64,000 nt of DNA from positions 27,283-91,282 of the forward strand of contig CAVSOP010000006.1 in assembly GCA_963729635.1 (NCBI GenBank), in the 5' to 3' direction. A program made the translations under genes and the position numbers. Position 1 is the first letter of the stretch. Each line of letters begins with the position of its first letter. This document shows positions 2,196 to 52,951 of the stretch, piece after piece. Below the pieces are notes generated by a model. That model had not been told where the DNA came from and searched no databases. It saw nothing but the letters and a program-made list of their open reading frames with translations. The stretch is from an uncultured archaeon (GTDB lineage: Archaea > Micrarchaeota > Micrarchaeia > Micrarchaeales > CABMGC01).

Positions 2196-3264
2196 GTGCG
2201 CAAGAAAATCGCGATCTACGCCTTCGCGGCCCTCCTGGCGCTCCTGGCCGGGACTAGCTGGGCGCAGGGCACGACCCAGTGCGCCGCGGAGGGCACGGCC
2301 AACGTGCTCGCGCCGTGGTACTGCAGCCAGGTGAACCAGGCCGTCGCGGGGACGTGGGAGGCTTGGGCGCCCCTTGCTTTCGTCACGATCACCCTCGCGT
2401 TCCTTATCGCGGCGACGATATTCATGGCTGGGACGGCCATGAGGAACGACAAGGTGAGGAACTTCGGCGTCGGCGAGATGTACGAGGCGGCGGCCACGGC
2501 CCTGATAGCCATCTTCTTCCTCACACTGGCGGCGGTCCTGTTCGGGATCGTGCCCGCGTTCGTCACCGGCCCGATAAACCCCTACGACACTGCCCTCACC
2601 TACATAAGCAACACGGCGGGCGCCACGCAGCTAGTCGTCAGGAACCTCTACAACATACTGATCATATCGCTGTACTACACCACGGTGAACCTGAACGTCT
2701 CGTCGTTCGGCTTCGCCAGCTCGATATTCAACGCCCTGGCTCCGGCCATCGCCCTGCTCTTCGCGCTCCCCGCAGAGGCCGATGGGCAAGCTGCTCGTGG
2801 ACGGCCTCATGGCGCTCTCCATGGAGTTCTACCTGCTGATCTTCTTCATGTACCTGGCGATACCTGTGTTCCTCATGCCCGGCATAATACTGAGGGCCAT
2901 ATTCCCGCTCAGGGGCCTCGGGGGGATGCTGATAGCCGTCGCGATATCGTTCTACCTGGTGCTGCCCCTGCTCTTCTCGGTCGCATATTATTTCACTAAC
3001 ACGGGCGTCATCGGGCGCTGGACGCATCCGCCGCGGCGCTCTGACGTCCACGGCGCCGGGACGCTCGCCGAGACCAACGCCGCGTCGGCGACGGCGCCGC
3101 TCGTGACCGACGTGAAGGGGCTTGAGAGCGGCATGGGGGCGTACTTCCTCGCGGTGATCGTCTACCCGGGGCTCATACTCGCCCTGACGTACGTCGCAAT
3201 GACGCAGATAGCCGAGTTCATAGGCGGGGTCTCGAAGATGTCAGGCAAGATGAGGCTGCTGTAG
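2196..3264 (+). CDS. Polytopic membrane protein with signal-peptide-like N-terminus (paralog 3 of 3), one apparent frameshift
   Basis: GTG start, MRKKIAIYAFAALLALLAGTSWAQG. ORF 2196..2999 continues in the frame of ORF 2782..3264 (indel near 2775). Motif LRGLGGMLIAVAISFYLVLP. Confidence 0.55.
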
Positions 3265-3307
3265 ATACATTATATATCCCTAACTCACAACTATAAGTCG
3301 TGGTCCC

Positions 3308-4138
3308 TTGGCTCTATCTGAAAGACTGGTGTTCGCGCTTCTCATCATGGCGTCGATGGCGCTGGTGCTCTTCACCATCCTCTTCGCCCTGCCGGACGCG
3401 GTCAAGTTCGTCTTCGTAGTCGTCGCGCTCGCGCTCGACGTCCTGGCGTTCTCGACCAAGTACTACTTCCAGTTCTTCGTGCCCTTCTCCCAGATGAAGG
3501 GCAGGACGGTGCTCCTCAACGACGGCGAGGCGTTCACCATCGCGCCCTCGGGGAACGCTATCGTCGTCAGGAACGGGCAGGACACATACGCGAGCGCGAT
3601 CGTCAAGATACCGTCGTACAGGTCCGCCACGGAGATGACGGACGCGGAGAAGGTCGATTTCGCTAAGATGTTCGGCAGGGTCGTGAGCCTGGCGAGGAGC
3701 CCGGTGAAGTTCGCCGCCCAGCTCTACGTGATAAACAAGGACGCGTACATCTCCAACATAAAGGCCAAGCTCGACGAGGCGGAGGAGAGGTACCAGGGCA
3801 CGGTCCTCAGCAAGAGCCTCTCCAAGGCAGACTCCGAGAGGATAAGGGGGGAGGTGACGATGTGGCACAACCTCTTCGACAGCGTGAACAAGACCCGGTC
3901 CCAGTCGCTCGAGGCGTACGCGATGGTGACTTCACCGGGGAACACGGAGGAGGAGGCGGTGAACCTCGCGCTCCAGCAGGCGGACGAGATAGCGACCGGG
4001 GTGAGCGCGATCTTCGGGATATCGGCAAGCATCGCCGAGGGGACGGACCTGCTCAAGTTCCTTGAGCCGGACTACATGATACCCGCCGTCACGATAAGCG
4101 AGCAGATGCGCGAGAGGACGGTGGACAGGGAGGCATAG
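3308..4138 (+). CDS. Bitopic membrane protein: N-terminal TM hairpin plus about 200-aa soluble domain (paralog A)
   Basis: Intact ORF. Two hydrophobic segments (LVFALLIMASMALVLFTILFAL, FVFVVVALALDVLAF) are followed by a charged soluble domain. Length and layout match the next gene. Confidence 0.6.
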   Translation: MALSERLVFALLIMASMALVLFTILFALPDAVKFVFVVVALALDVLAFSTKYYFQFFVPFSQMKGRTVLLNDGEAFTIAPSGNAIVVRNGQDTYASAIVKIPSYRSATEMTDAEKVDFAKMFGRVVSLARSPVKFAAQLYVINKDAYISNIKAKLDEAEERYQGTVLSKSLSKADSERIRGEVTMWHNLFDSVNKTRSQSLEAYAMVTSPGNTEEEAVNLALQQADEIATGVSAIFGISASIAEGTDLLKFLEPDYMIPAVTISEQMRERTVDREA

Positions 4139-7154: not shown

Positions 7155-8573
7155 GTGATTTGCGTGGGAGCTGAAGAAGCGCTTAATCTGCTGAAGGAGA
7201 AGAACGTAAAGTGGGTCGACGTCCAGTTCACAGACCTGCTCGGGAGGCTGCAGCACATAACCGTACCCTCGAAGGACTTCGACGATAAGTGCTTCGCGGA
7301 GGGATTCGGGAAGCTCGACGGGAGCAGCATAAAGGGCTTCACCTCGATAAACGAGAGCGACATGCTCCTGGTCCCGGTGCCGGAGACCATGACGATGATC
7401 CCTTGGATGGAGAAGACCGCCAGGGTCCTCGCCAACGTCCAGTGGGGCGGGGGGCGGGGCAGGTTCGAGAAGGATCCCAGATTCATAGCCGAGTCCGCCG
7501 AGAAATACCAGAGGGAGCGCGGGTTCAGCAGCTTCTACGGGCCCGAGCTGGAGTTCTTCATATTCGACAAGGTCGAGCTCGACGTCTCGACTCCTCAGAG
7601 CGGCACGTCCTACAGGCTGAGCTCGAGGGAGGCCCCATGGCAGAAGACCGGGAACTTCATGGTCAGGTACAAGGAGGGCTACTATCCCGCGCCTCCAGTG
7701 GACCAGCTGATGGGCGTCAGGATGGAGGCGGTCAACGCGCTCACGGACTATTTCGGATTCAACATAGAGGCCACGCACCACGAGGTGGCTACGGCTGGCC
7801 AGGGCGAGATAAACTTCACTTTCTCGACGCTGACGGATTCCGCCGACAAGGTACAGACGCTCAAGTACGTTCTGAAGAACATTGCCGCGAGCCACGACAT
7901 GGTCGCGACATTTATGCCGAAGCCCATGTTCGGGGACAACGGCACGGGCATGCACACCAATCTCAGCCTCTGGTCGGTAGACGGGAAGAAGAACGAGATG
8001 TACGACCCGAGCGACTCCTACGCCGAGATCAGCCAGACGGGGAGATACGCGATAGGAGGCATACTCGCCCACGCGCGGTCGCTCTCCGCGATCTCGTCTC
8101 CCACCACGAACAGCTACAGGAGGCTGATACCGGGATACGAGGCACCGGTCTACACGGCGTGGAGCAAGGCCAACAGGAGCGCGATAATAAGGGTGCCCGC
8201 ATACTACAAGGGGATGGAGAAGGCCAAGAGGATAGAGTACAGGGCCCCGGACCCTTCGGCGAACCCGTACCTCGCGTTCGCTGCGCTGCTAATGGCCGCG
8301 ATGGATGGCATAAACAAGAAGATCGAGCCTGCGGGGCACGTCGACGAGAACATATACCACCTCAGCAAGGACAGGAGGAAGGAGCTGAAGATAGGGGAGC
8401 TCCCGAGGTCCCTGGACGACGCGCTCGACGCCCTGGAATCCGACAGCGCGTTCCTGAAGCCGGTCTTCAACGACTCACTTCTGGACTCATACATCGAACT
8501 CAAGAGGGACGAGACCATGACGATGGCTCAGTACCCCCACCCGATGGAGTTGTACTACTATCTTGACGTCTGA
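7155..8573 (+). CDS. glnA: Glutamine synthetase type I
   Basis: Intact 472-aa ORF with GS hallmarks ([71 protein letters not shown]). GTG start is uncertain by a few codons. Confidence 0.95.
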
Positions 8574-9099
8574 GGGAGGACAGGACGGGGTGCGACTCCT
8601 CCTTATCCTCTACGCGGTTGAGATACAGCGCCGCGGCGAAGAGGTACGAGGACAGCCGGTTGAGGTATGCCTTGACATTGCCGTCCACCTGGTGGCTCCC
8701 GGCGGCCTCCAGCACGCTCAACTCGGCTTCCCTGGTCATGGCCCTTAATACGTGCAGCCGCGCCGCACCTGCGCACCCTCCCGGGTTTACGAAGCGCCCG
8801 GGACAGGGCACCACTTTCTCGATGACGTCCATGCGCGCCTCGAGCCGCGCTATCGGGTCTGCTAGGGCCCTGGAATCGCCGAGACCCGACAGCACTGCGC
8901 CTACCTCGAAGAGATCGTTCTGCACGCTCGCGAGCCCCGATCTGACGCGGCCGTCGCTCACGTAGCAAAGGGCCAGGCCGAGGCCGCTATTCAGCAGGTC
9001 TATGTCCGCCAGCGCGCGTATGATGGGATCAGTTTTGGGAACGGACTTGCCTAGGGCGAACGTCGTTCCCCCGTCACCGGCTCTGGTGTAAAAAGGCAT
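8500..9099 (-). CDS. pduO: PduO-type ATP:cob(I)alamin adenosyltransferase
   Basis: N-terminus [13 protein letters not shown] ... [10 protein letters not shown] ... [10 protein letters not shown] ... [13 protein letters not shown] matches the PduO/MMAB family. The C-terminal tail overlaps glnA convergently by 73 nt, so the true stop may be earlier. Confidence 0.85.
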
Positions 9100-9135
9100 G
9101 AGTTAACCTCGTTTAGCAGATGACGAAGCCCGGAG

Positions 9136-11472
9136 TCAGGCGTATTTCACCGATGCGCGCAGCTTCCTTACGACCTCGCCCTCCTGCGCACCGATCTCCT
9201 TCTTCAGGCTCTTCCTTATTCCCGACAGCGAGCGCTCCACGCTCTCGTACGCCCGCGTCAGCTCGTCGAGCCGGCCGGCGTTCTCCCTCAGCCGCAGCAG
9301 CACCTCCGCGTCGGCGGTCTTGCTCATGAGCTTCCTGTTCGCGGCGCTGAGCTTCCTCACCGACCTGCCGTACTTGATGAACCCCTTGAATGTCGAGTTT
9401 GAGACCCTGTCGAACCTCCTGCTCCACGCGCAGACCTCGTCCATCACGGTGGCTAGTTGGTCGGCGGTCAGGGGCGCGGACGTCGCATTCCTGAACTTCT
9501 CGAAATCAGCTTCGCGGGCCTTCATGTACCTGCCCAGCAACTCGTCAGATATCCGCTTGGCGTCGTCGGCGCGCACGCCCTTCGCGCCGGATGTGAATGC
9601 CTTGTCGTACTCCTGCTTCTGCTCGCCGTTCAGGGTCGCGTACGCCTCGTTTATCTTCTGCATGATCTGGCCCGCGTCTATCTCCTTGCTCACGTCGGGG
9701 TGGTGCTTCTTGACCAGCTCCTTGTATGCGCGCCTTATCTCCTTCTGGTCGGTGGTGTACTTTATCCCGAGAACCGAGTAATAGTCTGCGGCGCCGGATA
9801 CGCGGAGGTCCATGCCGAACGCGCCGGCCTCCTTCTCGAGCATCTTCACGAAGCGATCGCTGTTCAGCAGCAGCCTCTCAGTGTACCTGTCCCTCATCGC
9901 CGTGTCGAAGGCTCTGAATGCGCCAGCGGCCCTTCCCAGAATGCCCAGAAGGGCGAGCATCAGCAGTTCAATCAGCGAGCCTCCGCGCTTCGCCGCGCCT
10001 TCGGTGGAATGCGCGGATGAGGCGGTCCCGCGAAGCCCGGTCTTCGGGCCAAGGCCGCCCGAGGCAGGGGATTTCTTGCGGATCCTGCCGCCGATACTCA
10101 GGTAGTGGGATTTCTTTTTCACTGCTTCGCCTCCATCGTCTGTCGTGTGCGACGCGGGCAGGCTAGCCTGGATTACCGCGTCCTTGGGAATCCCGTCGCT
10201 CGACCTTAGGACCTGCTTGTACGTCTCGTGCGGATGCTTCCCTTGCTTCCCCGTCAGGGCCTGCGGCGTTGCGCGGCGGTCAGCCATCGAAGGCCCGAGG
10301 GCGCCCTTCCCATCGCGAATCGCCCCTGGTCTGTAATCCGCAGTCCCCAGAACATATGAGCGGCCGGCAGTTGTCAGGTCGACTCTCGCTTGTCGCGAAT
10401 CATGAGGAGCATTCAGCGAGAGTTCGCTTACAACGGAAATTTCGCCAGTATTCCCAATCGCGTACACGAGCCTTTCCGCTCCGGTACGATTCACTACTGC
10501 GGAGTTCTCCCTGTGATATCCGACAGGAGGGATGAACTGATTCGCCGCGTAAGCAGGCAAAGCTGCGAACTGCTGCGCCATCGCGAATGCCGCGACGGCT
10601 TTCAGGGATTCGGATCCTTCAAGAAGTCCCGCCTTCGGCAGGGCTTCCGAGTAGCCCGAGAACACGGGAGCCCAGAGAGAGGCGGCAATCAGGGACGCCT
10701 TGAATCCCCGCGCGTCCCCTGCAGAGAAGCCTTCTTGCCTCGCTATCTGCATCACCCTTCCGAGAGCCGCGGTATGCTCTGAGTAGGTCGCGGCCCGGGA
10801 CGAGCCCCTTTGGGCGGAGACCTGCGCGATCGACGATACGGAGCCCTGAGTATTCTGCACTCCTGAAATCGCAGACGGTACCCTGACTTCGCCGAATGAC
10901 GCGATGATCCTGGCTCCCGATTCCGCGCCGGCAGTCGCCCCGCCATACGACATGCGGATCGTGGGACTGCCCGCAACCGGGCTCAGCGACGGCTGCATAT
11001 CGTGCAGCTTCGAAATCCTCAGGAAATCTACGACGTCCCCGCTCTGCGCCATGAACTTCACGCCGGAAGCACTTAGGGCAAGGGCGGCATTCGGAGTGAT
11101 CGCGCCGCCGCCGAGGAACCTTATATCGCCATGGCCGTTCGCCCGCAGGTAAGCCACGGTATCCGCAGCCATCCTCAGATGCGAATCGCTCGGCAGGCTG
11201 AACGCCACGGCTCTCGCGCCGTACTGCGCGACAGCGTCCGAGATTGCCGCGTAGTCTTGCGGGTCGCTCAGATATATCGCCCTGAAGCCGGCGCGGTTGA
11301 GGTCGTGGGCGACGGTCCTCGCGCCCATGGCGTGCGGGTCGTCCCCGAGTTTCACCACCAGAACCGCTTCGCCCGAGTTGCTCTCTCCATCTCGATCCAC
11401 GCGTCCGCCAATATCTTTGACGCGGCCGCGGTCCCCAAGCTCTTCAACTGCCCGCTGTTGGCGGCGAGCCAA
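9136..11472 (-). CDS. Multidomain protein: cobalamin-binding (DxHxxG) Rossmann-like domain, long linker, TM segment, DnaJ (J) domain, coiled-coil tail
   Basis: B12-binding motifs: VLVVKLGDDPHAMGARTVAHDL (DxHxxG), FSLPS (SxL) and FLGGGAI (GG). TM segment GSLIELLMLALLGILG. J domain DYYSVLGIKYTTDQKEIRRAYKELVKKHHPD. The start is uncertain: a GTG is possible near 11390, or the gene may fuse to the upstream ORF. Confidence 0.7.
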   Translation of the reverse strand: MARRQQRAVEELGDRGRVKDIGGRVDRDGESNSGEAVLVVKLGDDPHAMGARTVAHDLNRAGFRAIYLSDPQDYAAISDAVAQYGARAVAFSLPSDSHLRMAADTVAYLRANGHGDIRFLGGGAITPNAALALSASGVKFMAQSGDVVDFLRISKLHDMQPSLSPVAGSPTIRMSYGGATAGAESGARIIASFGEVRVPSAISGVQNTQGSVSSIAQVSAQRGSSRAATYSEHTAALGRVMQIARQEGFSAGDARGFKASLIAASLWAPVFSGYSEALPKAGLLEGSESLKAVAAFAMAQQFAALPAYAANQFIPPVGYHRENSAVVNRTGAERLVYAIGNTGEISVVSELSLNAPHDSRQARVDLTTAGRSYVLGTADYRPGAIRDGKGALGPSMADRRATPQALTGKQGKHPHETYKQVLRSSDGIPKDAVIQASLPASHTTDDGGEAVKKKSHYLSIGGRIRKKSPASGGLGPKTGLRGTASSAHSTEGAAKRGGSLIELLMLALLGILGRAAGAFRAFDTAMRDRYTERLLLNSDRFVKMLEKEAGAFGMDLRVSGAADYYSVLGIKYTTDQKEIRRAYKELVKKHHPDVSKEIDAGQIMQKINEAYATLNGEQKQEYDKAFTSGAKGVRADDAKRISDELLGRYMKAREADFEKFRNATSAPLTADQLATVMDEVCAWSRRFDRVSNSTFKGFIKYGRSVRKLSAANRKLMSKTADAEVLLRLRENAGRLDELTRAYESVERSLSGIRKSLKKEIGAQEGEVVRKLRASVKYA

Positions 11473-12161
11473 TCGGGGTTTACTTGCTTGTCCAGTGCAA
11501 ATTTGGAAGCATAACTCGCGAAGGTCGGGTCCTTGAGCATGTCGCGCAGATCCCGATTCTGCACCAGTTTCTTATCAGTCAGTGCGTCCGCATCGCCAAT
11601 CTTGTTGGCAGAGGCCAGCCAATTGCTGGTCCCGCCGGCACCCATGTGCTCGTATAGGTCCCACATCCTATCTGAGAAGAACCTCTGGTCTGCCAGTGCG
11701 TCGTACCCTTTCCATCCGATCACGAACAGGACGGAGGCCGCAACGTACAGGTCCCGACCTCGCATGGAATCGAAGAATTCCCCGGCGGTGAGCGCTTCGA
11801 AATGGCTCCCGTTGCTGTCTTCGTTGAGGGCGATCATGTGTTCGAGGCGGATGAGCGGGTCGAGCCGCATCATCTCGCCCCCTATCCTCTCCAGTTTCTC
11901 CGCCGAGATGCCAGGGGAGACATGGTTGATCAGCGCTTCGACGTTCGCGGGCGTCCCGATTCTTCCGGCATACTCGCGCATCTTCCGCTCCTCGTTGAGA
12001 GACCGCTCCTCCCCTTTCTCTTCCTTGCTCTTCTTCTCGCTGTCGCAGAAGAATTGGCCGATTACGGGCTTCGCTTCTCTGATGGATTCATTTACCGCGG
12101 AGTAATCCTGCGTCTTCGGAGTCGGCTTCCGGACGGTGGCTGAGATGGTCTGGACCGCCAT
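11352..12161 (-). CDS. Hypothetical protein, first gene downstream of the cobalamin riboswitch-like leader (possibly the N-terminal part of the B12-binding protein)
   Basis: Intact 269-aa ORF with GGAAGGGGTGA upstream of the ATG. No family recognised. Its 3' end overlaps the next ORF by 120 nt in another frame. Confidence 0.5.
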   Translation of the reverse strand: MAVQTISATVRKPTPKTQDYSAVNESIREAKPVIGQFFCDSEKKSKEEKGEERSLNEERKMREYAGRIGTPANVEALINHVSPGISAEKLERIGGEMMRLDPLIRLEHMIALNEDSNGSHFEALTAGEFFDSMRGRDLYVAASVLFVIGWKGYDALADQRFFSDRMWDLYEHMGAGGTSNWLASANKIGDADALTDKKLVQNRDLRDMLKDPTFASYASKFALDKQVNPDWLAANSGQLKSLGTAAASKILADAWIEMERATRAKRFWW

Positions 12162-12276
12162 TCAATCACCCCTTCCGCGCGGGGCCAGCCGCTGCGGGCT
12201 TATCTGACAAGGATGACGCTTTGCGTTCTCGGCTGGTAGAAATAGGCGCGTTTTATACATCTATACCCATGCTCGT

Positions 12277-12459
12277 GAGCTACATAGGACTCAGGCAGAC
12301 TGGCTTACCCGCGAGCGGGATTACAGTTGCGGCACAGCAGTGGAATCGCACCACTTTCCCCTGACTTTAGCTGGATCTGAACCCAGCTGTCCGGTGATAC
12401 CATTCGGAAGGATACGCTTATAATCCCTGCCAAGAAATTCTGGCACAGGACTATAGCTC
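12277..12459 (-). promoter_or_regulatory. Cobalamin (B12) riboswitch-like aptamer
   Basis: Minus strand reads AGGGGAAAGUGGUGCGAUUCCACUGCUGUGCCGCAACUGUAA, which matches the conserved core (compare E. coli btuB AGGGAAUCCAGUGCGAAUCUGGAGCUGACGCGCAGCGGUAA). This is followed by a CCCG-CUCG-CGGG hairpin and a B12-box-like AAGCCAGUCUGCCUG. A P1-like pairing GAGCUAUA (12452-12459) / UAUGUAGCUC (12277-12286) encloses it. Confidence 0.75.
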
Positions 12460-12541
12460 CAAGGCAACCTAACGTGCGCGTAAAGTCTTATAATCTTGCT
12501 CATCCTGTAGCTCTCGGACTGCTTTATCGCTGGATGAGAGA

Positions 12542-12739
12542 ATGGCCAAGGACAAATACAAAGGATGCATGCCTGGATGCGGATGCGGCAGCGCGGCCTA
12601 CGGGCTGGGGTTTATCGGTTCGCTGGTGTATTACGTGAGCACCGCGGCGACCTTCTGGCTCGCGGTCCTGGGATTCTTCAAGGCGCTGGTCTGGCCGGCC
12701 TTCCTGGTATACGGCCTGCTCAAGTTCCTGGGAATGTGA
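12542..12739 (+). CDS. Small Cys-rich membrane protein (65 aa)
   Basis: ORF MAKDKYKGCMPGCGCGSAAYGLGFIGSLVYYV... with two hydrophobic spans. No family recognised. Confidence 0.4.
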   Translation: MAKDKYKGCMPGCGCGSAAYGLGFIGSLVYYVSTAATFWLAVLGFFKALVWPAFLVYGLLKFLGM

Positions 12740-12837
12740 AAGGCCATCGCAGAGATAGGAGGGGCTCCAGCACAATTGAAACCGAATCCCAAGATTACTC
12801 CGAAATACTGCACGTTGGTGTCTTGCACTAGGCTAAC

Positions 12838-13908
12838 TTATTTTAATGTCACAGATTTTTCGATAAACCTGCCATAGCTGTCGGCGGCTTCCTTGATCCC
12901 TTCGTTTTGTTCCTTGTTTAACTTGGTGAAAGGAGACAGGGCGATCGTGACCCTGTTCTTCTCTTCCTTGCGCCTCCACGTGCCAATCACTCGACCTTCC
13001 GACACCAGAGCAGGCAGGAACGTCCCATTCGATCCATTGATGACCTTCGTCGCGTATTTCGGTTCGATTATTGATGCCCGATTCTTGTAAGCGACAAGAT
13101 ATTCGTCGAATGCTGGCAGCAAGTATGTGGTCCGCTTGGCTTGGTTGGCAGATGGATTCTTCTTCGGCATCCAATAGGTGTCCCCTGTCGATGTGTCTTC
13201 CTTCATGCGGGATGAGATTGCATCAAGGCCCGATTCAGCATCGCCCAGGCCGATGCCGGCCCACCACGCAAAATCCTTCAATGTTGCGGGACCATGACTC
13301 CCGAAATAGGTCCTGGCCAGCTTTGCAAGCACCGCGTCACGATTCGGCGGCTTTGGCACGGGGCTCTTAAACAGCGCGAACGCGGGACGGCCGCTGACGT
13401 GCTCGCTAAAGCAGATTATTCCCTTGCGGCCCGACCTTCGGATTATGTGCCTCTGAACATCGATTTTCCTGAACTCAGGTATGCCGGAATCTGAAAGCAC
13501 CCTGCCGAGATCTTTGTAGGTTAGCTGCCTTTCGTGCTTGAACGCATCTGAAACGAGCTCCATCCCCTTCTTGAGAAGTGGCCTGGTCAGTCCGTTCTTG
13601 CGCTGGCGACTTGGGATGCTGGCGTCTTCATGGTAAAGGCTCAGCATCCATTTCACCTCTTTTGGCGGAACCAGGTGCCATGTGCCGCGCATCGCCCAGG
13701 TCCTTATGATCTTTCTCTCCGCAATTGCATCCTCAACATCGGATTGCGTCGCCTTCTTGCAGCGGAGCCCCACGGCCCACAACGCATCCCGGTAAGCCTG
13801 CGCCTGAACTGCACCAAGATAGGATACGAGCCCTTCTGGTCTCATCGGCGATGGCTGGGAGATGCATTGATTGGCGAGCCTTAGCCTCGTTATCTCGTCG
13901 TTATCCAT
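12838..13908 (-). CDS. AlkZ/YcaQ-like winged-helix DNA glycosylase (DUF1006 family)
   Basis: Intact 356-aa ORF. N-terminal LGAVQAQAYRDALWAV contains a Q-x-Q motif like AlkZ. RTWAMRGTWHLVP, FAWWAGIGL and LLPAFDEYLVAYKNR match the family pattern. Visibly lower GC than the surroundings. Confidence 0.7.
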   Translation of the reverse strand: MDNDEITRLRLANQCISQPSPMRPEGLVSYLGAVQAQAYRDALWAVGLRCKKATQSDVEDAIAERKIIRTWAMRGTWHLVPPKEVKWMLSLYHEDASIPSRQRKNGLTRPLLKKGMELVSDAFKHERQLTYKDLGRVLSDSGIPEFRKIDVQRHIIRRSGRKGIICFSEHVSGRPAFALFKSPVPKPPNRDAVLAKLARTYFGSHGPATLKDFAWWAGIGLGDAESGLDAISSRMKEDTSTGDTYWMPKKNPSANQAKRTTYLLPAFDEYLVAYKNRASIIEPKYATKVINGSNGTFLPALVSEGRVIGTWRRKEEKNRVTIALSPFTKLNKEQNEGIKEAADSYGRFIEKSVTLK

Positions 13909-13912
13909 TGCC

Positions 13913-13929
13913 CCAGCCAGATTCGAACT
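13913..13929. repeat. 17-nt direct repeat of the 3' end of tRNA-Gln (CCAGCCAGATTCGAACT; second copy 13946-13962)
   Basis: Perfect 17-nt copy located 33 nt from the copy inside the tRNA. It looks like a truncated T-arm/acceptor remnant. Confidence 0.8.
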
Positions 13930-13940
13930 CGAACATGAGA

Positions 13941-14013
13941 TAGCTCCAGCCAGATTCGAACTGGCGTCAACGGGTTCAGAGCCCGCTATCCTTGGCCGCT
14001 AGACTATGGAGCT
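13941..14013 (-). tRNA. tRNA-Gln (anticodon CUG)
   Basis: Reverse complement AGCTCCATAGTCTAGCGGCCAAGGATAGCGGGCTCTGAACCCGTTGACGCCAGTTCGAATCTGGCTGGAGCTA folds as a cloverleaf. It has a 7-bp acceptor stem, a GTTCGAATC T-loop, anticodon loop CUCUGAA and discriminator A. Confidence 0.9.
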
Positions 14014-14030
14014 GCAAATTCAGTTTGCCA

Positions 14031-14805
14031 TTGCACATTAATAATATTTTCTCACTAATCCTAAGCTATGCTGAAGCGGAGGGCCTCGGCCTGTCGAAGG
14101 AGCTGGAGGACATAATCGTCGCGGACCTGGTGCTCTCGTTCGCGTTCACCATGGTGCTGAGCGGAGGCATCTTCGGCGGCGCGCCGAGCGTCGCGTCGCT
14201 GCTGCCCCTATTCGCGATATCGCTCGTGGCCGTGACGCTCTCCTTCGTACTGCACGAGATGATGCACAAGTTCGTGGCGCAGCACTTCGGCGCCGTGGCC
14301 GCGTTCAGGAGGTCGGACAACGGGCTGATGATCACGCTCATTCACGAGCCTCTTCGGCTTCCTCGTGGGCATTCCCGGGGCAACGGTCATCTACGCCCAC
14401 AATTTCACCAAGAAGGAGGAGGGTTACGTCTCGCTCGCGGGGCCTCTCACCAACCTCGCGGTCTTCGCCGTCTTCCTGGCCCTGGGGCTCTTCGCAGCGA
14501 GGTCGATCGGCTTCGCGAACGGGCTGTTCAGCGTAGGCTCGAGCGGCTTCGTGGGCGACCTGATAGGCACGACGATGCTCATCAGCCTGATACTCGCGTT
14601 CTTCAACATGCTGCCCATCTACCCGCTCGACGGGAGCAAGGTGCTGAGATGGAGCAGGCCGGTCTACTTCGTCGTCCTGGCGGCGGTTCTGGCGCTGCTG
14701 TTCCTGTTCTTCTCCACAAGCGACATAGTGTACAGCCTGGCCTTCATGCTGGTCTTCGCCTTCGCGATGAGCTTCTTCTTCAGGGGAGGGGGGCTGCGTC
14801 TTTAG
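14031..14805 (+). CDS. Site-2 protease family (M50) membrane metalloprotease, one apparent frameshift
   Basis: HEMMHKFVAQHFG (HExxH) in ORF 13992..14813, and FNMLPIYPLDGSKVL in ORF 14365..14805, with the frame switch near 14340-14365. The start is uncertain (TTG at 14025/14031 just after the tRNA). Confidence 0.7.
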
Positions 14806-14839
14806 AAAAGTAGGGTATGAGCAAGCCGCGCGTCTCGGA

Positions 14840-15270: not shown

Positions 15271-17434
<2,164 letters not shown>

Positions 17435-19184: not shown

Positions 19185-20104
19185 TCATACTGCCCTCGGC
19201 ACCTCGAATCCCGCCGCGTGCGGATGGCCTCCGCCGCCGAACGCCATAGCCAGCGCGGTCATGTCGCTCTTGACGCTCCTGATGCTGGCAGTGCGTGAGC
19301 CGGTCTTGATCAGGATGCTTATGTCCGCACCAGTCCTGTCGAGCATCGCGCGGCAGGCGTCGCTCGAATCGACCTCCTTGGAGAATCCGACGGCCATCTT
19401 CCCCGAGACCACTTCCAGGCCGCCCAGCAGGGCCCTTATCCTCAGGTTATTGGTGCGCTCGTAGCTCTTCGCGGCGTCGCGCATGCTTCTTGTCGAAGAA
19501 CCTCCCCGAGCCGATGACATCGGCGATCCTCCTGAGCCGCTTCTGCCTTGCGTCGAACGAGCCCCCGCTGCCCAGGTGGTTTATGCTCATCGAGTACGTC
19601 CTTGCCGCGGAGCGGGACCATGAGGGGTTCGGCAGGGAATCGAAGCCCAGGAATAGGTCGATGCAGTGCACGAGGCCTGACGAACCTCTCCACGAAGTCG
19701 CCGGTGAGTCGGGTGTACTTCTTGGTTATGTCCGTGGCGCAGGCGCACCTGTTCTCCCCGACGATCGCGGTCTCGCACCTCCTTGGCTATCTCACTGAGT
19801 CGCCTGTCGCTCCAGTAGTGGTGGTCCAGCCAGACCACCGCGCCGCCCTTAGACCTGACAAGCCTGACGAAACGGGAGACAGTGGCGTGGCAGGTTCGGG
19901 TTCAGGGAGAGGTCCGTGAAGAACACGAGGGAGCCCTTCCCCAGGCGCGGCGCGATCCTGCGGATGGCGTCCTCGAAGTCCGCCAGCGAGTGGTTGACGA
20001 AGAAAAGGTCTGCCGGAGTCGAGGTGGTACCTCATCTTGAGCAGCGAGGCGCTGCCCACGCCGTCTATGTCGTCGGCATGGGAGACGACGAAAGTGCTTT
20101 CCAT
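19185..20104 (-). CDS. DHH/DHHA1-family phosphoesterase (NrnA/RecJ-like), several apparent frameshifts
   Basis: N-terminal MESTFVVSHADDIDGVGSASLL (DHH-type motifs) in ORF 19787..20158. C-terminal GGGGHPHAAGF (DHHA1 motif) in ORF 19185..19520. The middle lies in other frames. Confidence 0.7.
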
Positions 20105-20238
20105 GTTCTTATCTGCACGGCAAGAATAATAGAGCTTTTCGGGATCACGGGCGGGCACGCCTCCGGCTGGGGTCCATTACACTAATTGAAGGATTAGAAG
20201 GGCCTGGACTTGGGGGAAGTGCAGGCCCCTGGTCCCCC

Positions 20239-20798
20239 TTACGGGGGAGATACAATTAGTGTGTTGATCGCCTTGCCAGCATCATATTTGTAATAAACCT
20301 TGTGACCGAGCTGAAGCCTGTCGAGCAGGCCGAGCCTGTGAAGGTTGTTGAGCCTCGCGCAGGCGGCGTTATTGCCCTTGTAATTCATGAACGCCCTGAC
20401 CTCCTCGCGCGCACGCCATACCCTTCGTCTGCACGAAGTTTATCAGCTTGGCGTCGACGCCCGAGAGGGGCACCTCCCTGCTGTTCTGGGGGGCGTAGTC
20501 GTCCTGCTGCCCGCTCAGCTCCAGAGCGCTTATCTCGTCCTCCAGCTGCTTGAGCTTCAGGGTCACGTTTTCTAATATCCTATTAGTCTTCCCGCGCTCG
20601 TCCACCAGATACTTTATCAGCGTCGGACAGGCCGGCGTTCTCGGGGATCTCCTCTTGGTTCTTCTCGGAGACGACCTTGAGCTCCCTCCTGAGCTCCTCG
20701 ATCTCCTTTTCGACCTGTTTGTTGTCCATTCGACCATCCCCTGCGCGCATTCCAGATGCATCCCTGATACTTCCCTGATCCTTACCTGATGAGCTCAT
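20239..20798 (-). CDS. Coiled-coil plus winged-helix (MarR/TrmB-like) DNA-binding protein, apparent frameshifts
   Basis: MDNKQVEKEIEELRRELKVV... then LKLKQLEDEISALE and VDAKLINFVQTKGMACAEEVRAFMNYKGNNAACARLNNLHRLGLLDRL after frame correction. The stop lies inside the hairpin CCCCCTTACGGGGG. The start is uncertain (20729/20750/20798). Confidence 0.5.
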
Positions 20799-20873
20799 AA
20801 TTGATTCACGCCACAAGCATGAAACAATCATGAAACAATCATATGTAACGCTTGTCAAGATATTTAAACATTG

Positions 20874-20881
20874 CGTTTTTG
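20874..20881. repeat. 8-bp target-site duplication CGTTTTTG (left copy; right copy 25929-25936)
   Basis: An identical octamer directly abuts both terminal inverted repeats. 8 bp is the duplication length characteristic of the IS6 family. Confidence 0.85.
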
Positions 20882-20935
20882 GGTTCTGTCCATAAACTCG
20901 GCACCTAAATCATAGTGTCGCATTCGGCACCTGAG
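20882..20935. repeat. Left terminal inverted repeat of the IS6-family element
   Basis: GGTTCTGTCCATAAACTCGGCACCTAAATCATAGTGTCGCATTCGGCACCTGAG aligns with the reverse complement of 25876-25928. It contains two copies of the sub-repeat TCGGCACCT. Confidence 0.85.
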
Positions 20936-21593
20936 CGATATTGCTCTCTGAACTAAGTTTTATCAGGCTTAGCCACCTGTTTCTTTCGTTTCCTATGCTT
21001 ATTCCAGCGACCTCTGACGGCGTTAGCCCATTAAAGGTCTGGTGTGGTCTTACGAAATTGTAAAAGGTCTTCCAGTTCTCTATGTATCGCTTTGCGGTCT
21101 TTTCGCTCTTAAGACCACGAATGACCTTATCCCTTTCACGATAGGTCGCATGATACCTCTCTATGAGTTGGTTGTCCATCTTGCTTGTTGCGTGCAATAA
21201 ACTCTCGTCCTGCACGTTCAAGCCGTGTATCCTATGCCAACCTATCATAAACTCCCTTCTTATCGCCTTAGGGTAGAATTTGCCCTTGTCCGTCGCTATC
21301 TCTGTCGGTTTCTGCGATAGGTAAGGTTTAGCCTTCTGCATTATGCTTCTTGCGTCGTTTATGAACCTTGACTTTGTTATCTGGTTTGCGAGCAGGAAGC
21401 GTGTTTTGTTGTCAAGGACGTTCCAGCACCACTCATTCGCTTTGCCTATCTGCACCGATTGTTCGTCTATGTGTATCCTTTCGCTTGTCTGTGGCTTTAG
21501 GGTGTTGGTGTAATCGTTTATCCTTGACATGAAGCGGTTATAGCCTTCCACTAAAGTCTTCGGGGACAAAAATACATAAATCTGCGTTTCTGA
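20910..21593 (-). pseudogene. IS6-family DDE transposase, C-terminal (catalytic) fragment
   Basis: HIDEQSVQIGKANEWCWNVLD (D), IATDKGKFYPKAI (D) and NQLIERYHATYRERDK (E; compare IS26 NNVIECDHGKLKR). There is no ATG. The reading frame opens right at the IS630 boundary. Confidence 0.8.
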
Positions 21594-22651
21594 ATGTCAA
21601 CCGCGACCAGAAATGACCTTGGAAGAAGATTCTTCCACTTTGAATGAACTTGCAGAAAAGTCCAAGAGTGCGAAGGATTATGAGAGATTGAGGGTGCTAT
21701 ACGCAGTTAGCATCGGCAAATCTGTCAGAGAGATCGCGGAAATCTTTTGTATTGACGAGGACACTGTATATACATGGATAAAGAAGTGGAAAGAGAAAAG
21801 AAACGTGTTCGATGAACCGCGCAGTGGTAGGCCACCATCATTTACAGAAGAAGAGAAAAAGGAATTGAAGAAACTGATTGATGAGAACGACCCCGGTAAG
21901 CACGGCATGAATGCCAGTTATTGGGATACGAAGGAACTGACGAGATACTTCGTGAAGAAGGGAATAGATGTCTCTCAGGAGACGCTGCGAAGGACCCTCC
22001 ACGAGATGGGCGCGCACTACGTGAAGGCAGAGATACATTACAGCGAAGCAGATTTCGGAAGGCAGGCGGAATTTGCAAGGCAATTCCTATCTGATGTCGA
22101 GGAGAAACCCGCAAATGTCATAATTCTGTTTGGCGATGAGATGGGTGCCAACAGGTCACCAAAGAAGGGGTATGGATGGACCTTCAACAAGAGACTTGTC
22201 GTCAAGGCGCAGCAGTCCCAAAAGGAAAAGACGAATTGCTTCGGCGCGACAGATTCCATAAATGGCGATACGATACAAATGCAATCGAAGAGTGCAAAAA
22301 GCGATGCGTTTGTGAGGTTCCTACAGAAAATAAGCGCAAAATATCCCGATAACATTGTCTGGCTCTATTTGGACAACGGACAAGTGCACAAGTCGGTCAA
22401 AGTGAAGAAGTATCTTCAGAATAATCCGAATATAACCTTGAAGTTCCTTCCGCCCTACTCTCCAGACCTTAACCCGCAAGAACAGATGTGGAAACATGAA
22501 CGGCGGAAGTTCCTGAACAACAGGTGTTTTGATTCGTTACATCAGTTGTCTTTGTCATTGAACTGGTTCGTAAAGAGACTTGGAAAGGACGAAGTGCGTA
22601 GCGTCTGTTCACTCATTCCTATTGAACAGATGATTGTACCTCAGTACTGAT
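21579..22651 (+). mobile_element. IS630/Tc1-mariner-family insertion sequence nested in the IS6 transposase gene (boundaries approximate)
   Basis: It sits exactly between the two halves of the IS6 transposase. Candidate TA dinucleotides are at 21577-21578 and 22652-22653. I could not identify convincing TIRs. Confidence 0.6.
21613..22650 (+). CDS. IS630-family transposase
   Basis: Intact 345-aa ORF. N-terminal HTH (SVREIAEIFCIDEDTVYTWIKKW, RSGRPPS), then DDE-type core (ILFGDEMG, WLYLDNGQVHKS, LPPYSPDLNPQEQMW). Confidence 0.9.
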   Translation: MTLEEDSSTLNELAEKSKSAKDYERLRVLYAVSIGKSVREIAEIFCIDEDTVYTWIKKWKEKRNVFDEPRSGRPPSFTEEEKKELKKLIDENDPGKHGMNASYWDTKELTRYFVKKGIDVSQETLRRTLHEMGAHYVKAEIHYSEADFGRQAEFARQFLSDVEEKPANVIILFGDEMGANRSPKKGYGWTFNKRLVVKAQQSQKEKTNCFGATDSINGDTIQMQSKSAKSDAFVRFLQKISAKYPDNIVWLYLDNGQVHKSVKVKKYLQNNPNITLKFLPPYSPDLNPQEQMWKHERRKFLNNRCFDSLHQLSLSLNWFVKRLGKDEVRSVCSLIPIEQMIVPQY

Positions 22652-23237
22652 TACTTCTGTGGAATGCTATAATCCAGCGTCTTACTGTTTCATGGTGCAG
22701 TTTCAGACCAAAATTCTTATAGAGTGTGTCCTGAATATCCCTAAGCGAATTGCCCTTGTAATACATATCAAGGACAAGACAGACCATACGGGCGTTGCCC
22801 TTGATACCCTTAGTCGGGTCAAGGACAAAGAAGGTGTTGCAGGTCTGGCACTTGTATTTCTGTTTTGCACCCGATTTGTTCTTCCTCTTGCCTTTCTGTA
22901 TCAACTTGTCGCTCTTGCAGTTAGGGCATATTCTTTCGTCTGTTATACTTTCAACGTCAAAGTCTTCAAGTTCTACCTTGTTCTTTAGCTTGTTGAACAG
23001 GATTATCGACTGAATGTGCTTGCAGTATATTCCGTTTCCCCTGCATCTGCTTAGGTAATCGGGACAAGTGCAAGAATAGGCGTCTATGTGGCTTACTGTG
23101 TATTTCTTGGTGCCATCAGAGGAAGGCACCAGATAGACGCCTTCGCTTACTGTTTCTGGGACTGCCTTGTTTAGCAGAGCCGAAGCCCTTTCCTTCCTAT
23201 CGTCAGACAGCTTTTTCAGGTCTGTGTTTGCGTTCAT
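22641..23237 (-). pseudogene. IS6-family transposase, N-terminal fragment (SWIM zinc finger, zinc ribbon, HTH)
   Basis: CTCPDYLSRCRGNGIYCKH (SWIM-like CxCx(n)CxH), CPNCKS...CQTC ribbon, and SLRDIQDTLYKNFGLKLHHETVRRW (HTH). It terminates at the IS630 junction. Confidence 0.75.
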
Positions 23238-23264
23238 ATTTACACCTTCTTTGTTTCCTTCTGT

Positions 23265-23283
23265 TCTATATATAATATATAGA
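23265..23283. promoter_or_regulatory. 19-bp perfect palindrome TCTATATAT-A-ATATATAGA in the divergent transposase / RHH-methyltransferase promoter region
   Basis: 9+1+9 palindrome in the AT-rich 85-nt spacer between the transposase start (23237, minus) and the RHH start (23323, plus). Confidence 0.6.
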
Positions 23284-23322
23284 GCATATAGATATATATA
23301 CTTATTGGTTCATTACTTAATC

Positions 23323-23484
23323 ATGGGTAAAACAAAGAAACCTGAGGATAAGGCAATAACTAAGTCCATTACTATTTTACCTCGCCATGAGGAATATATA
23401 CAGTCTAATTTTATAAACTTGTCAAAGTTCGTGCAAGGCAAGATAGACGAGGAAATAAACAAAAAGAAAGGTGTTAAAAAATGA
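23323..23484 (+). CDS. Small ribbon-helix-helix-like DNA-binding protein (controller-like)
   Basis: 53 aa, MGKTKKPEDKAITKSITILPRHEEYIQSNFINLSKFVQGKIDEE. It follows a beta-strand then helix pattern like CopG/RHH proteins. Its stop overlaps the methyltransferase ATG (ATGA). Confidence 0.5.
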   Translation: MGKTKKPEDKAITKSITILPRHEEYIQSNFINLSKFVQGKIDEEINKKKGVKK

Positions 23485-25871
23485 CTGAGGACACCGAAAA
23501 GAAGTCTGAGATGGACGTTATTTTCAAGCAGATTGCACCAGTATTGGAGAAGTTGGGATATAGCGAAAAGGTCAAGGGAGAGATTGAGCATGAAAAGTCA
23601 ATTCAGATAGGTAAAGGCAAATACGTCTATCCAGACATAGTAATCAGCATTAAAGGCGTTCCTGTAATCGCCCTTGATGGAAAGAACCCAAACGAGAATT
23701 TAGACTTATACGAAAGGCAGATACTCGCTTATGGCTTGTTGCTAAAGACACCTTATTCAGTTCTATCAAATGGAAGCGTAATCAGGGTCTATGAGACACA
23801 AACAGAAAAAGTGATATGGGAAAAGGCGATAGACAAGACGCCGACCTTCCTCTCTAAAGAAAATCTAATCAAGAAGATAAGTAAGACAATAGAGACAGTC
23901 TCCGAGGAAAGACTGGAAGAAGCCAAGAAAACGCTGCTCGTCTTTGAGGGGATAAAAGAGTTCTCAAATATCCTATCAAAATGCGAAGACACAATAAGGG
24001 ATATTGATGGTCTAACTGGTGCTGACGCTTTTGATGAGATTAGCAAATTGCTTTTTACGAAGATGTATTTTGAGAAGAAGGCGATAGAGGGTGGTTCAAA
24101 CTTATTCTCGCTCACAAACATAAAGAGTAATGGCGGTGCGAAGTACGTGCGAGAGTATCTTTTCAAGGCAGCGAAGGACAACAACAAGGACATATTCTTA
24201 GGGAATGAGACGATAAAGCTGGAAGATGCGAGCATAGAAAAGATGGTCGGACTTTTGCAGGATTACACCCTCATACGAACAGATGTAGATGTTAAGGGCA
24301 AAGCGTTTGAGATATTCTTAGGGAAGACCTTTACTGGCGATTTGGGTCAGTTCTTTACACCAAGAACGATAGTTAGGTTTGCGGTGCTTTTTGCAGACCC
24401 AGAGATAAATTCGCCGATAGATGAGAAGGGCAAATCGCCCTATCTTGTCCTTGACCCTGCTTGTGGTTCTGGCGGTTTCCTCATAGAAATATTTAACGCC
24501 ATACTGGAAAAGATAAAACGCCAGCCAGCGAGCAAACAAGGCGAGCTATTTGAACAGCTTAGAATGAAGCAAATCTTCGGGATAGACATTAATGAACGCT
24601 TGGTCAGAGTAGCGAAAATGAACATGGTGCTACACGGGGACGGACACGGTGGCATATACAAAGCGAATGGACTGGAAGGAACAGATAACATCAAAGATGG
24701 CACGTTTGACCTCGTTATCACAAATCCGCCTTTCGGCAATAAGGACACCAAGCCCGACCTGCTAAAGAATTTTGAACTGGGAAAAAGAGAAGGCGCACCC
24801 ATGAAAGAGCAGCTAAGGGAGATACTTTTCGTTGAAAAATGCATTAATCTCTTGAAAGCGGGGGGGGGCGAGCTTGCAATTCTGTTGCCTGATGGGATAC
24901 TAAACAACGAAAGAGGAACGTATGTAAGAGACTTCATAAAGTCAAAGACCATAATCAAGGCAGTTGTCAGCTTGCCAGACAGGGCATTCAAAGCCACTGG
25001 TGCGAACAGCAAGACAAGCCTACTATTCCTCAAAAAGAAGTCTGATGAAAATGAGCCACAGCCACCGATATTCATGGCAGTTGCAGAGTATGTTGGTTAT
25101 GAGACACGGACAAAGGAAGCCAAGCAGATAGAGGCTAATGACCTTCCTAAGATACTGGACACTTACAAAGAATATAAGTCTGGCAAGTTCTTTGAGAACG
25201 TGAAAACAAAGACGGACACACTTGAGATTTTGCAGAATACACCTTCTTGTTTCCTGATAGGCACTGATTTTGTGAAGGACAGGATAGATGCAACTTACTA
25301 CTATGCGAAGTATATCTTTGAACTGGAAAAGGAAGGTTGCATAGTCAGTGATGTTGCGAGCAGGTCAGAGGTAATAGTCAATCCTCAGAAAGAACCCACA
25401 AAAGCGATAAGATACATTCAATACAGCAACATAGAGAAGAATTTGGGCGACGTGATAAATTACCTTGACTTATTGGGAGAGGAAGCACCATCAAGGGCAA
25501 AGCTGTTCGTGAATGCTGGTGATGTTATCGCTGCTAAGGTCAAAGACAGCGAGGAAAACATAGCGATAATCCCTAAGGAACTGGAAGGGTCAATAGTCTC
25601 ATCAGGGTTCGTAGTGGTCAAACCGATAAAACCCATGACCTCTGAAGCACTATTCGTATTGATGAGACTTAGAACCACCACCAATCAGGTCAGATGGAAG
25701 TCGTCAGGAACGATACTTCCCTCTATCTCCGATGAGGAATACATGACCATCAAGATACCCAAATTGACTGAAAAGGAGATAGAACGGATAACAAAAGAGG
25801 TCAAAGAAGTCAATATCCAAAGAGCAATAATAAAAGACACGCTCAACAAGCTCTCAGTAGAATTCAAGTGA
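23481..25871 (+). CDS. Single-chain R-M-S-like protein: HSDR_N/PD-(D/E)xK-like N-domain, gamma-class N6-adenine DNA methyltransferase, one HsdS-like target recognition domain
   Basis: Intact 796-aa ORF. N-domain YVYPDIVISIKGVPVIALDGK (PD...DxK). MTase motif I VLDPACGSGGFLIE and motif IV ITNPPFGNK. C-terminal TRD-like RAKLFVNAGDVIAAKV...SSGFVVVKP...ILPSISDEEYMTIKIP. Confidence 0.85.
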   Translation: MTEDTEKKSEMDVIFKQIAPVLEKLGYSEKVKGEIEHEKSIQIGKGKYVYPDIVISIKGVPVIALDGKNPNENLDLYERQILAYGLLLKTPYSVLSNGSVIRVYETQTEKVIWEKAIDKTPTFLSKENLIKKISKTIETVSEERLEEAKKTLLVFEGIKEFSNILSKCEDTIRDIDGLTGADAFDEISKLLFTKMYFEKKAIEGGSNLFSLTNIKSNGGAKYVREYLFKAAKDNNKDIFLGNETIKLEDASIEKMVGLLQDYTLIRTDVDVKGKAFEIFLGKTFTGDLGQFFTPRTIVRFAVLFADPEINSPIDEKGKSPYLVLDPACGSGGFLIEIFNAILEKIKRQPASKQGELFEQLRMKQIFGIDINERLVRVAKMNMVLHGDGHGGIYKANGLEGTDNIKDGTFDLVITNPPFGNKDTKPDLLKNFELGKREGAPMKEQLREILFVEKCINLLKAGGGELAILLPDGILNNERGTYVRDFIKSKTIIKAVVSLPDRAFKATGANSKTSLLFLKKKSDENEPQPPIFMAVAEYVGYETRTKEAKQIEANDLPKILDTYKEYKSGKFFENVKTKTDTLEILQNTPSCFLIGTDFVKDRIDATYYYAKYIFELEKEGCIVSDVASRSEVIVNPQKEPTKAIRYIQYSNIEKNLGDVINYLDLLGEEAPSRAKLFVNAGDVIAAKVKDSEENIAIIPKELEGSIVSSGFVVVKPIKPMTSEALFVLMRLRTTTNQVRWKSSGTILPSISDEEYMTIKIPKLTEKEIERITKEVKEVNIQRAIIKDTLNKLSVEFK

Positions 25872-25875
25872 TTTC

Positions 25876-25928
25876 CTCAGGTGCCGAATGCGACAAATTA
25901 GTTCAGGTGCCGATTATGCGACAGAACC
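25876..25928. repeat. Right terminal inverted repeat of the IS6-family element
   Basis: Reverse complement GGTTCTGTCGCATAATCGGCACCTGAACTAATTTGTCGCATTCGGCACCTGAG. It starts 5 nt after the methyltransferase stop codon. Confidence 0.85.
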
Positions 25929-26078
25929 CGTTTTTGGCCCGTACTTCCAATACTTCAAGCGCCAGGGGAGGGCCTTCCACGGGGATAATTGACAGAAAAG
26001 GCTATAAATGTTGAAAATGTAATGGGCAGGTGGCCTTCTGAAGGCGGAGGCGTTCCAGTTCCTGACGCAGTGATTACG

Positions 26079-41455: not shown

Positions 41456-41467
41456 ATTTGTGACTTA

Positions 41468-51665: not shown

Positions 51666-51666
51666 C

Positions 51667-52945: not shown

Positions 52946-52951
52946 GACGCC

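Follow-up and report, generated by a model that had tools for sequence, protein, structure and literature searches.

A cobalamin-binding J-domain protein under a cobalamin riboswitch in Micrarchaeota: a candidate cofactor escort

DPANN archaea have reduced genomes and take cofactors from their hosts, which raises the question of the route by which such cells acquire vitamin B12 (cobalamin) and distribute it internally. A locus that bears on this question lies in a 64,000-nt stretch of DNA from an uncultured archaeon of the Micrarchaeota (contig CAVSOP010000006.1), a stretch referred to throughout as the window; all features of the locus lie on its minus strand. The locus would form one transcription unit, comprising a TATA box, a short-form cobalamin riboswitch, the gene for a 1007-aa protein in which a B12-binding domain is joined to a J domain, and, in this lineage only, a gene for a PduO-type adenosyltransferase. 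We tentatively favor the interpretation that the protein is a riboswitch-repressed cytoplasmic carrier or escort of cobalamin that recruits Hsp70, a function inferred from the evidence set out below.

One gene in place of two

As assembled, the window carries three minus-strand open reading frames (ORFs) after the riboswitch, at 12161..11352 (269 aa), 11472..9136 (778 aa) and 9099..8500 (199 aa). The initial annotation counted these as three genes; its coordinates stand, but the first two ORFs are a single gene. An indel had been suspected where they overlap, rightly so: comparison with short-read contigs across 11352–11472 revealed two extra bases in the assembly, 11392 and 11394, both of which are missing from otherwise identical Logan contigs (runs X1, X2 and X4; three soil metagenomes from one study). 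Without these spurious bases, the 269-aa and 778-aa ORFs read through as a single ORF of 1007 aa (9136..12161, minus strand), in keeping with the earlier guess of one protein of ~1030 aa, and the same fusion is found in the orthologue P0002, which is 984 aa long, 62% identical and encoded by a single ORF. The corrected junction LADAWMDGESNSGEAVLVV agrees with LAEAWMSGEGNSGEAVLVV in P0002, and the fusion point reads LADAWMDGESNSGEAVLVVKLGDDPHAMG in the 1007-aa ORF and LAEAWMSGEGNSGEAVLVVNVGDNSHPMG in its P0002 counterpart; compared directly with P0002, the 269-aa ORF matches at 4e-71. The frameshift between the two ORFs is an assembly error. A pseudogene or split-gene reading is thereby discarded, as the short-read contigs are in frame. 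In addition, a short-read contig of 2644 nt spans 8400–10745 with 0 indels and confirms both the presence of the PduO gene and the junctions, so that the remainder of the gene, PduO and the junctions can be relied on; short-read comparison found no further indels between 8400 and 11100.

Indels are frequent elsewhere in the assembly of the window: CDC48 (15271–17431) is spread over at least four reading frames when compared with loci L001 and L009, and an M50 peptidase ORF (13992–14813) drops out of frame midway relative to its L002 orthologue. Other apparently split genes of the window should therefore not be taken at face value.

The combination of domains recurs outside the window. A full HMMER scan with P0002 as query identified full-length relatives at 26–64% identity (P0003/L002, P0004, P0005, P0007, P0008, P0009, P0014 and P0018), and Pfam places a B12-binding domain ahead of DnaJ in every one of them. 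The order N-terminal domain, B12-binding domain, linker and J domain holds in at least nine diverged relatives (P0002 and the eight others, down to 26% identity), which answers the suggestion in the initial annotation that the same order be sought in other archaea; on sequence evidence, the domain order is conserved, and not a one-off fusion. All relatives lie on archaeal contigs, probably of Micrarchaeota/DPANN. The flanking genes in the window and around the relatives are archaeal (aIF2-gamma, S6e, CDC48, aIF-2 with an intein, exosome subunits, TBP and L21e), proteins of a J-less sister family described below are labelled Candidatus Micrarchaeota at NCBI, and the Micrarchaeota contig L009 shares the aIF2-gamma, S6e and CDC48 neighborhood with the window, at ~65–70% protein identity over the best-matching stretches of these three proteins. 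The samples of origin are soil, peat and lake water. Database names for the proteins are generic (‘cobalamin-dependent protein’, ‘CbpA/MCM cobalamin-binding subunit’), and literature searches on a J domain combined with a B12-binding domain returned nothing relevant; the architecture, unfamiliar to the earlier reader, is thus undescribed in the literature searched.

Head, linker and J module

The head of the protein consists of an all-helical repeat domain (11397..11984, minus strand) and a B12-binding Rossmann domain (11059..11364, minus strand). The repeat domain has no match in Pfam or NCBIfam (0 families for the 269-aa ORF). Typical family members carry five helical repeats of ~36 aa with a GNVxALTD motif; in the window lineage the repeats are degenerate and shortened, and a deletion removes ~37 residues ahead of the Rossmann domain. 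An AlphaFold model of the P0002 head (residues 1–401, from a 19-sequence alignment; predicted local distance difference test (pLDDT) 87, predicted template-modeling score (pTM) 0.81) shows helices at residues 9–247 followed by a five-stranded Rossmann domain, with five beta-alpha units at 256–376 (pLDDT ~90). The B12-binding domain is real and, to judge from its residues, keeps its His-on ligand. PF02310 matches residues 37–138 of the 778-aa ORF (9.6e-11; 42 bits against a cut-off of 32.1) and the domain is present in relatives too; the window carries DDPHAMG, with the codon of the His ligand at 11332–11334, as well as GGG; and His267, Gly342-Gly343 and Trp246 (P0002 numbering) are invariant across 19 family heads. 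The initial annotation had reported all three cobalamin motifs, of which DxHxxG and GG are present and SxL is approximate only, its Ser being nearly invariant in the family but the spacing reading FSL. The model matches the B12 folds of CarH, MttC and MetH.

By sequence, the family profile is closest to the small subunits of B12-dependent mutases, namely that of methylmalonyl-CoA mutase (MCM; 2yxb, 2.4e-24) and HcmB (4r3u, 2.5e-21), with which the head shares an HDRGAK-type His loop, the GG motif and the Rossmann fold; the same profile matches MetH at ~1e-7 only, and most homologues retrieved with the alignment of heads were methylmalonyl-CoA mutases. These matches, together with one to TIGR00640 (MCM small subunit), would suit the small subunit of an adenosylcobalamin (AdoCbl)-dependent mutase whose catalytic subunit is encoded apart, as in archaeal split MCM. 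We nevertheless consider this role highly improbable. The TIGR00640 score of 35.4 bits lies under the defining cut-off of 57.45, none of 15 loci has a gene for a mutase large subunit or for MeaB next to that for the head, and cobalamin riboswitches rarely repress B12-dependent enzymes. Moreover, whereas the B12 domains of mutases work with a catalytic partner, the present one has none and is instead preceded by the helical-repeat domain (~250–260 aa) and followed by a linker and J module, none of which fits into a mutase.

By fold, the Cob modules of CarH, AerR, MttC and MetH, in which helices likewise pack N-terminal to the Rossmann domain, are the best match to the whole head. Foldseek ranked CarH, MttC and the MetH Cob domain highest, with template-modeling (TM) scores of 0.44–0.58 and root-mean-square deviations (rmsd) of at least 8 Å. 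The initial annotation had considered a CarH-like light sensor, and an AdoCbl photoreceptor in which photolysis changes the recruitment of Hsp70 would draw on the fact that the best structural matches are the dark and light states of CarH (E ~4e-5), that an adenosyltransferase adjoins the gene, and that lake water and surface soils are among the sample types. The evidence runs against such a role, which we regard as very unlikely. The Wx9EH motif of the helical cap, which we take to define CarH-type photoreceptors, is absent from 20 of 21 heads, a regular-expression search finding one off-register match only. Neither Pfam nor NCBIfam detects a DNA-binding domain (a match to NF052513 covers the B12 domain only, at 22.8 bits against a cut-off of 400), and there is no methyltransferase context. 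The TM scores are low to moderate and the rmsd large, the sequence is far nearer to mutase small subunits than to the MetH/AerR-type domains that make up the fold class of CarH, and, as described below, adjacency to PduO is not conserved and riboswitch control fits a nutrient logic.

No signal peptide was found on the head, which is thus placed in the cytoplasm, where it would bind cobalamin base-off/His-on; a secreted B12 binder is discarded because the signal peptide is missing. A Cys residue occurs in the first long helix of about three-quarters of the heads (columns ~77–80 of alignment A1; FFCDSEK in the window). Cobalt is ligated by a thiolate in BtuM and in the MMADHC–MMACHC complex.

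Between the head and the C-terminal module lies a variable, Ala/Gly/Ser-rich linker of ~330 aa (10003..11007, minus strand), which is probably disordered: column conservation is ~0.3, compared to 0.5–0.8 in the flanking domains, and Ala, Gly and Ser together make up 39% of residues. The linker would tether the head flexibly to a module of helix, J domain and bundle. The module opens with a basic cluster and a hydrophobic or amphipathic stretch, LIELLMLALLGILGRAAGA (9919..9975, minus strand), at the start of a helix of ~50 residues. The stretch had been annotated as transmembrane, and it is indeed hydrophobic in the window (Kyte–Doolittle 19-residue mean of 1.87), but it is not conserved as a membrane segment; the mean is below 1.5 in P0002, P0003, P0004, P0007, P0008 and P0014 and at most 0.7 in stand-alone relatives, so that transmembrane-level hydrophobicity is reached in some members only. 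The same basic–hydrophobic motif occurs at the extreme N-terminus of stand-alone J proteins and at the C-terminus of the J-less sister family. From this pattern we read the stretch as an amphipathic, peripheral helix and not as a membrane span. A true transmembrane protein is discarded, both because the segment is not conserved and because a single pass would separate the head and the J domain across the membrane. DjlA-type J proteins share a hydrophobic helix N-terminal to the J domain, but the helix here is not a conserved transmembrane one, and a match to NF006948 covers the J region only.

The annotated J domain (9604..9786, minus strand) is borne out on three counts: (i) PF00226 matches residues 563–623 of the 778-aa ORF at 4.1e-15 (56.1 bits against a cut-off of 27.8), (ii) the four-helix J fold is recovered by Foldseek, with the J domain of CbpA (3ucs) at a TM score of 0.83, rmsd of 1.7 Å and 46% identity, and (iii) the HPD loop is at least 90% conserved across 36 sequences. 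It is followed by a C-terminal helical bundle or coiled coil of ~150 aa (9139..9585, minus strand; pLDDT >90). The model of the C-terminal region as a whole (pLDDT 88) consists of one helix of ~50 residues, with the hydrophobic segment as its first turns, the J domain, and the bundle, for which Foldseek found no PDB match beyond the J domain. The module would recruit DnaK/Hsp70 and perhaps a membrane or partner protein. The 64-kb window contains no dnaK gene; DnaK, DnaJ and GrpE are reported in ~61% of metagenome-assembled genomes of Micrarchaeota (PMC8407392) and in many DPANN (PMC8204110).

Each part of the protein also occurs separately. More than 35 stand-alone J proteins of ~268 aa correspond to the C-terminal module alone (the 268-aa ORF of L011, considered as another, is not a J protein). 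In L012, L013 and L014 such a gene (8001–8807; 6879–7685 in L014) lies between those for a CCA-adding enzyme and a phosphatase of 199 aa, which begins 3 nt past it and belongs to His_Phos_1. We take this family to include the CobC alpha-ribazole phosphatase; a B12 link of the stand-alone J locus is unproven. Conversely, the sister family (which includes P0024, P0027, P0039, P0051, P0061 and P0069) comprises the head and linker, ends just past the short basic-then-hydrophobic helix, and has no J domain. One member, P0047 (874 aa), ends instead, at residues ~690–874, in a CYTH/TTM domain homologous to the inorganic triphosphatase NeuTTM of Nitrosomonas (PDB 2fbl/3typ, E = 3e-15), which was missed by Pfam and recovered against PDB sequences. 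Since triphosphate is the by-product released by adenosyltransferases, we tie this fusion to adenosylation. Together with the PduO gene downstream in the window, it suggests two independent links between the head and adenosylation.

These separate occurrences bear on the possibility that the protein is a sensor of B12 status, in which cobalamin occupancy governs whether the J module recruits Hsp70, or at which site, so that a chaperone or membrane process is tuned to B12 and no cofactor is carried. B12-binding domains free of an enzyme are often regulatory, the top Foldseek matches are of the CarH and AerR type, and the wide occurrence of the J module on its own makes the head look like an add-on. 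However, it would be strange for a sensor to be repressed by the very ligand that it senses. The J-less sister family retains both head and linker and, in L011, also the riboswitch, which points to a role of the head independent of Hsp70, and the PduO and triphosphatase links suggest cofactor chemistry. We therefore judge a sensor unlikely.

The riboswitch, its genes and the surrounding window

The initial annotation placed a riboswitch at the head of the gene, and the aptamer indeed matches RF00174 above the gathering score (12275..12405, minus strand; 36.8 bits against 31.5). It stands directly upstream of a head-family gene in 11 loci (the window, L001, L002, L003, L005, L006, L007, L011, L016, L018 and L019), that is, in 11 of the 13 head-family loci with an intact upstream region; L004 holds the same gene as L003 on a second contig, and in L008 the upstream region is cut off. 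Homologous aptamers in 12 other loci score 33.5–48.9 bits. The aptamer is a short form, with 61 model positions replaced by a 6-nt hairpin and the peripheral extension missing. In a 13-sequence alignment, 7 of 34 predicted pairs show double changes, located in P1, P2 and P6, and the core is too invariant for covariation to be assessed; the RNAalifold fold does not exactly reproduce the canonical structure. The conserved core, the B12 box and the 5′ leader position directly before a start codon are shared with known short forms of RF00174 (class II, env8 type), from which the present element differs in occurring on archaeal contigs behind a TATA box and in its invariant, AUG-bearing tail of 11 nt. 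The TATA box, TTATAA (12418..12423, minus strand), lies ~25 nt upstream of the first aptamer helix (P1) and recurs at equal distance before the aptamer in 8 of 8 loci inspected, a position that points to an archaeal promoter.

The tail, CACGAGCAUGG (12267..12277, minus strand), lies directly 3′ of P1 and does not vary among the 13 aptamer loci, whichever gene comes next. Its AUG (12270–12268 in the window) is the start codon in L011 and L017; elsewhere the start codon, or the start of an upstream ORF (uORF), lies 10 nt further on. In the window a uORF of 32 codons (12162..12260, minus strand) begins 10 nt past the tail and meets the main ATG in frame at a TGAATG junction. The same junction ends the uORFs of L001 (23 codons, 9906–9977) and L002 (32 codons, ~9685–9783), and the differences between the window and L001 uORFs are mostly synonymous. 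The main ATG after the uORF has its own Shine–Dalgarno sequence. The uORF could be a device for termination–reinitiation or the relic of an insertion. The position of the aptamer suggests translational control; RNA-seq runs were searched as well, and none holds the locus. Most cobalamin riboswitches repress in response to their ligand, and the present one would likewise shut translation when cobalamin is plentiful, such that the protein would be made when B12 is scarce. The literature searched on cobalamin riboswitches in DPANN or Archaea yielded nothing relevant. Surveys of riboswitches in Archaea, as quoted in PMC8281238 and PMC8241225, name no cobalamin riboswitch, and PMC8241225 gives the fluoride riboswitch as the only one experimentally tested in Archaea.

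Repression at high B12, combined with a single cofactor site, would also suit a scavenging sink, that is, a cobalamin store or buffer of high affinity that is held in the cytoplasm near the membrane and whose J domain aids only its folding or turnover. The flexible tether ending in a hydrophobic or amphipathic helix, which is found in both families, fits such an arrangement. One site per ~1000 aa would, however, be costly for a reduced genome, and the conserved HPD loop and helical bundle suggest a specific Hsp70-dependent step; a store thus seems quite unlikely.

Downstream of the main gene, the 199-aa ORF (8500..9099, minus strand) encodes a PduO-type ATP:cob(I)alamin adenosyltransferase, as first annotated: PF01923 matches at 2.7e-37, and TIGR00636 scores 120.5 bits, above its equivalog cut-off of 108.45. 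Its ATG lies 36 nt past the stop of the 778-aa ORF, the spacing given previously, and is preceded by its own Shine–Dalgarno sequence, GAGGT. A glutamine synthetase gene converges on it.

The genes that the riboswitch precedes elsewhere bear more widely on its function. When metagenome contigs were searched with a 24-nt stretch that is invariant in the aptamer, five more loci came to light, of which three carry head-family genes. In a fourth, L017 (47–3628), a riboswitch of the same subtype (48.9 bits) stands before the gene for a PduO-type adenosyltransferase, which comes immediately after that for NrdJ, the AdoCbl-dependent ribonucleotide reductase (NrdJ_Z, 7.7e-112; split into two ORFs, 2360–3628 and 1217–2296), with a convergent NrdR gene nearby. 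In the fifth, L015 (975–1681), it precedes (42.9 bits) a multi-pass membrane protein of 186 aa assigned to DUF6580, a candidate cobalamin transporter; a literature search on DUF6580 returned nothing relevant, and the L015 contig also carries a diphthamide synthase fragment and a tRNA. Because the same subtype precedes PduO beside nrdJ in L017 and DUF6580 in L015, the regulon looks like one for B12 uptake and adenosylation. The subtype appears to control genes for B12 adenosylation, probably uptake, and most often a head-family gene, a pattern that suggests a B12-acquisition regulon.

Several features of the wider window deserve mention in their own right. Upstream of the locus lies tRNA-Gln (13941–14013, minus strand), with a 23-nt copy of its 3′ end at 13907–13929 (91%) and a degenerate copy near 12450–12465. 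Between the copies are an AlkZ-like DNA glycosylase gene (12838–13908) and a Cys-rich membrane ORF of 65 aa (12542–12739); in L001 the tRNA directly abuts the riboswitch promoter, and in L002 a PIN gene is found there. The region (12440–14013) looks like an integration hot spot or its remnant. A low-GC island at 20000–26000 (0.42–0.49, compared to ~0.60 elsewhere) contains a DDE_3 transposase (21613–22650) and a 796-aa N6-methylase/Eco57I-type restriction–modification enzyme (23481–25871) and was probably acquired horizontally. Finally, a cluster at 40106–55153 includes large Laminin_G_3 (LamG) proteins (41572–43116; 44194–45972, with a PQQ beta-propeller; 48399–51665), AAA_14/DUF4143 ATPases among them (40106–41455, 46911–48185), and an exosortase/EpsH-like membrane protein nearby (54011–55153). 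This may be a surface-protein and sorting system, as DPANN might use for host contact.

A possible route for cobalamin in the cell

Both the control by a riboswitch and the nature of the other genes that its subtype precedes lead us to prefer acquisition and trafficking of B12 over light sensing, in an organism that is probably unable to make B12. As an escort, the protein would capture scavenged corrinoid, exchange it with the adenosyltransferase in either direction, and deliver it to AdoCbl-dependent enzymes, NrdJ among them. By analogy with HscB and HscA in iron–sulfur (Fe–S) transfer, Hsp70 would supply conformational work for loading or release. In HscB, too, a helical bundle comes after the J domain, and the protein serves a single cofactor pathway, as proposed here; TIGR00714 matches the J region weakly. 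The analogy is mechanistic only: outside the J domain there is no match to HscB in sequence or fold, and in the present family the cofactor-binding domain is part of the same polypeptide. The proposed role as a cytoplasmic escort also resembles those of MMACHC/MMADHC and of MeaB/MMAA with MMAB, and the window protein is linked to an adenosyltransferase of the PduO/MMAB type. It is, however, not homologous to MMACHC/MMADHC or to the G-protein chaperones, and a J domain with Hsp70 would take the place of the GTPase.

A number of observations count against an escort. The linkage in an operon with PduO, as first annotated, does not hold in relatives: PduO is adjacent in this window only. L001 and L002, which are closest to the window, lack it, as do all 8 further loci whose downstream sequence is available; at the corresponding position, glnA follows directly in L001 and a PIN gene in L002. 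Across loci, no neighbor is conserved apart from the riboswitch, and the riboswitch itself does not occur at the sister-family loci L009 and L010. A pairing partner for the tail was sought with RNAduplex, which gave no consistent pairing across loci; an OFF switch is consequently an assumption taken from the behavior of most cobalamin riboswitches. The Asp of DxHxxG, present in the window, varies among D, E, N, G and P across the family. Lastly, the stand-alone J module is found outside any B12 context, for which reason the J module may serve localization rather than cofactor transfer.

In its fullest form, the proposal of an escort becomes that of an Hsp70-powered device for cobalamin handoff, in which DnaK would load or release the cofactor, under the first conserved archaeal cobalamin-riboswitch regulon, which would cover the carrier, PduO and a candidate transporter in B12-auxotrophic DPANN cells. 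We hold this form to be conceivable but doubtful.

The modules of the protein and its leader are all of known kinds; what is new is the N-terminal domain, the way in which the modules are combined, and the regulon under an archaeal riboswitch. For DPANN cells, the locus offers a testable candidate for a step in B12 supply, in the form of a B12-binding protein under a B12 riboswitch that is linked to an adenosyltransferase, nrdJ and a candidate transporter. The riboswitch would extend cobalamin riboswitches to Archaea, as a compact translational switch with a start codon inside an invariant tail, and a J protein serving a cofactor other than Fe–S would, if true, widen the known uses of Hsp70.

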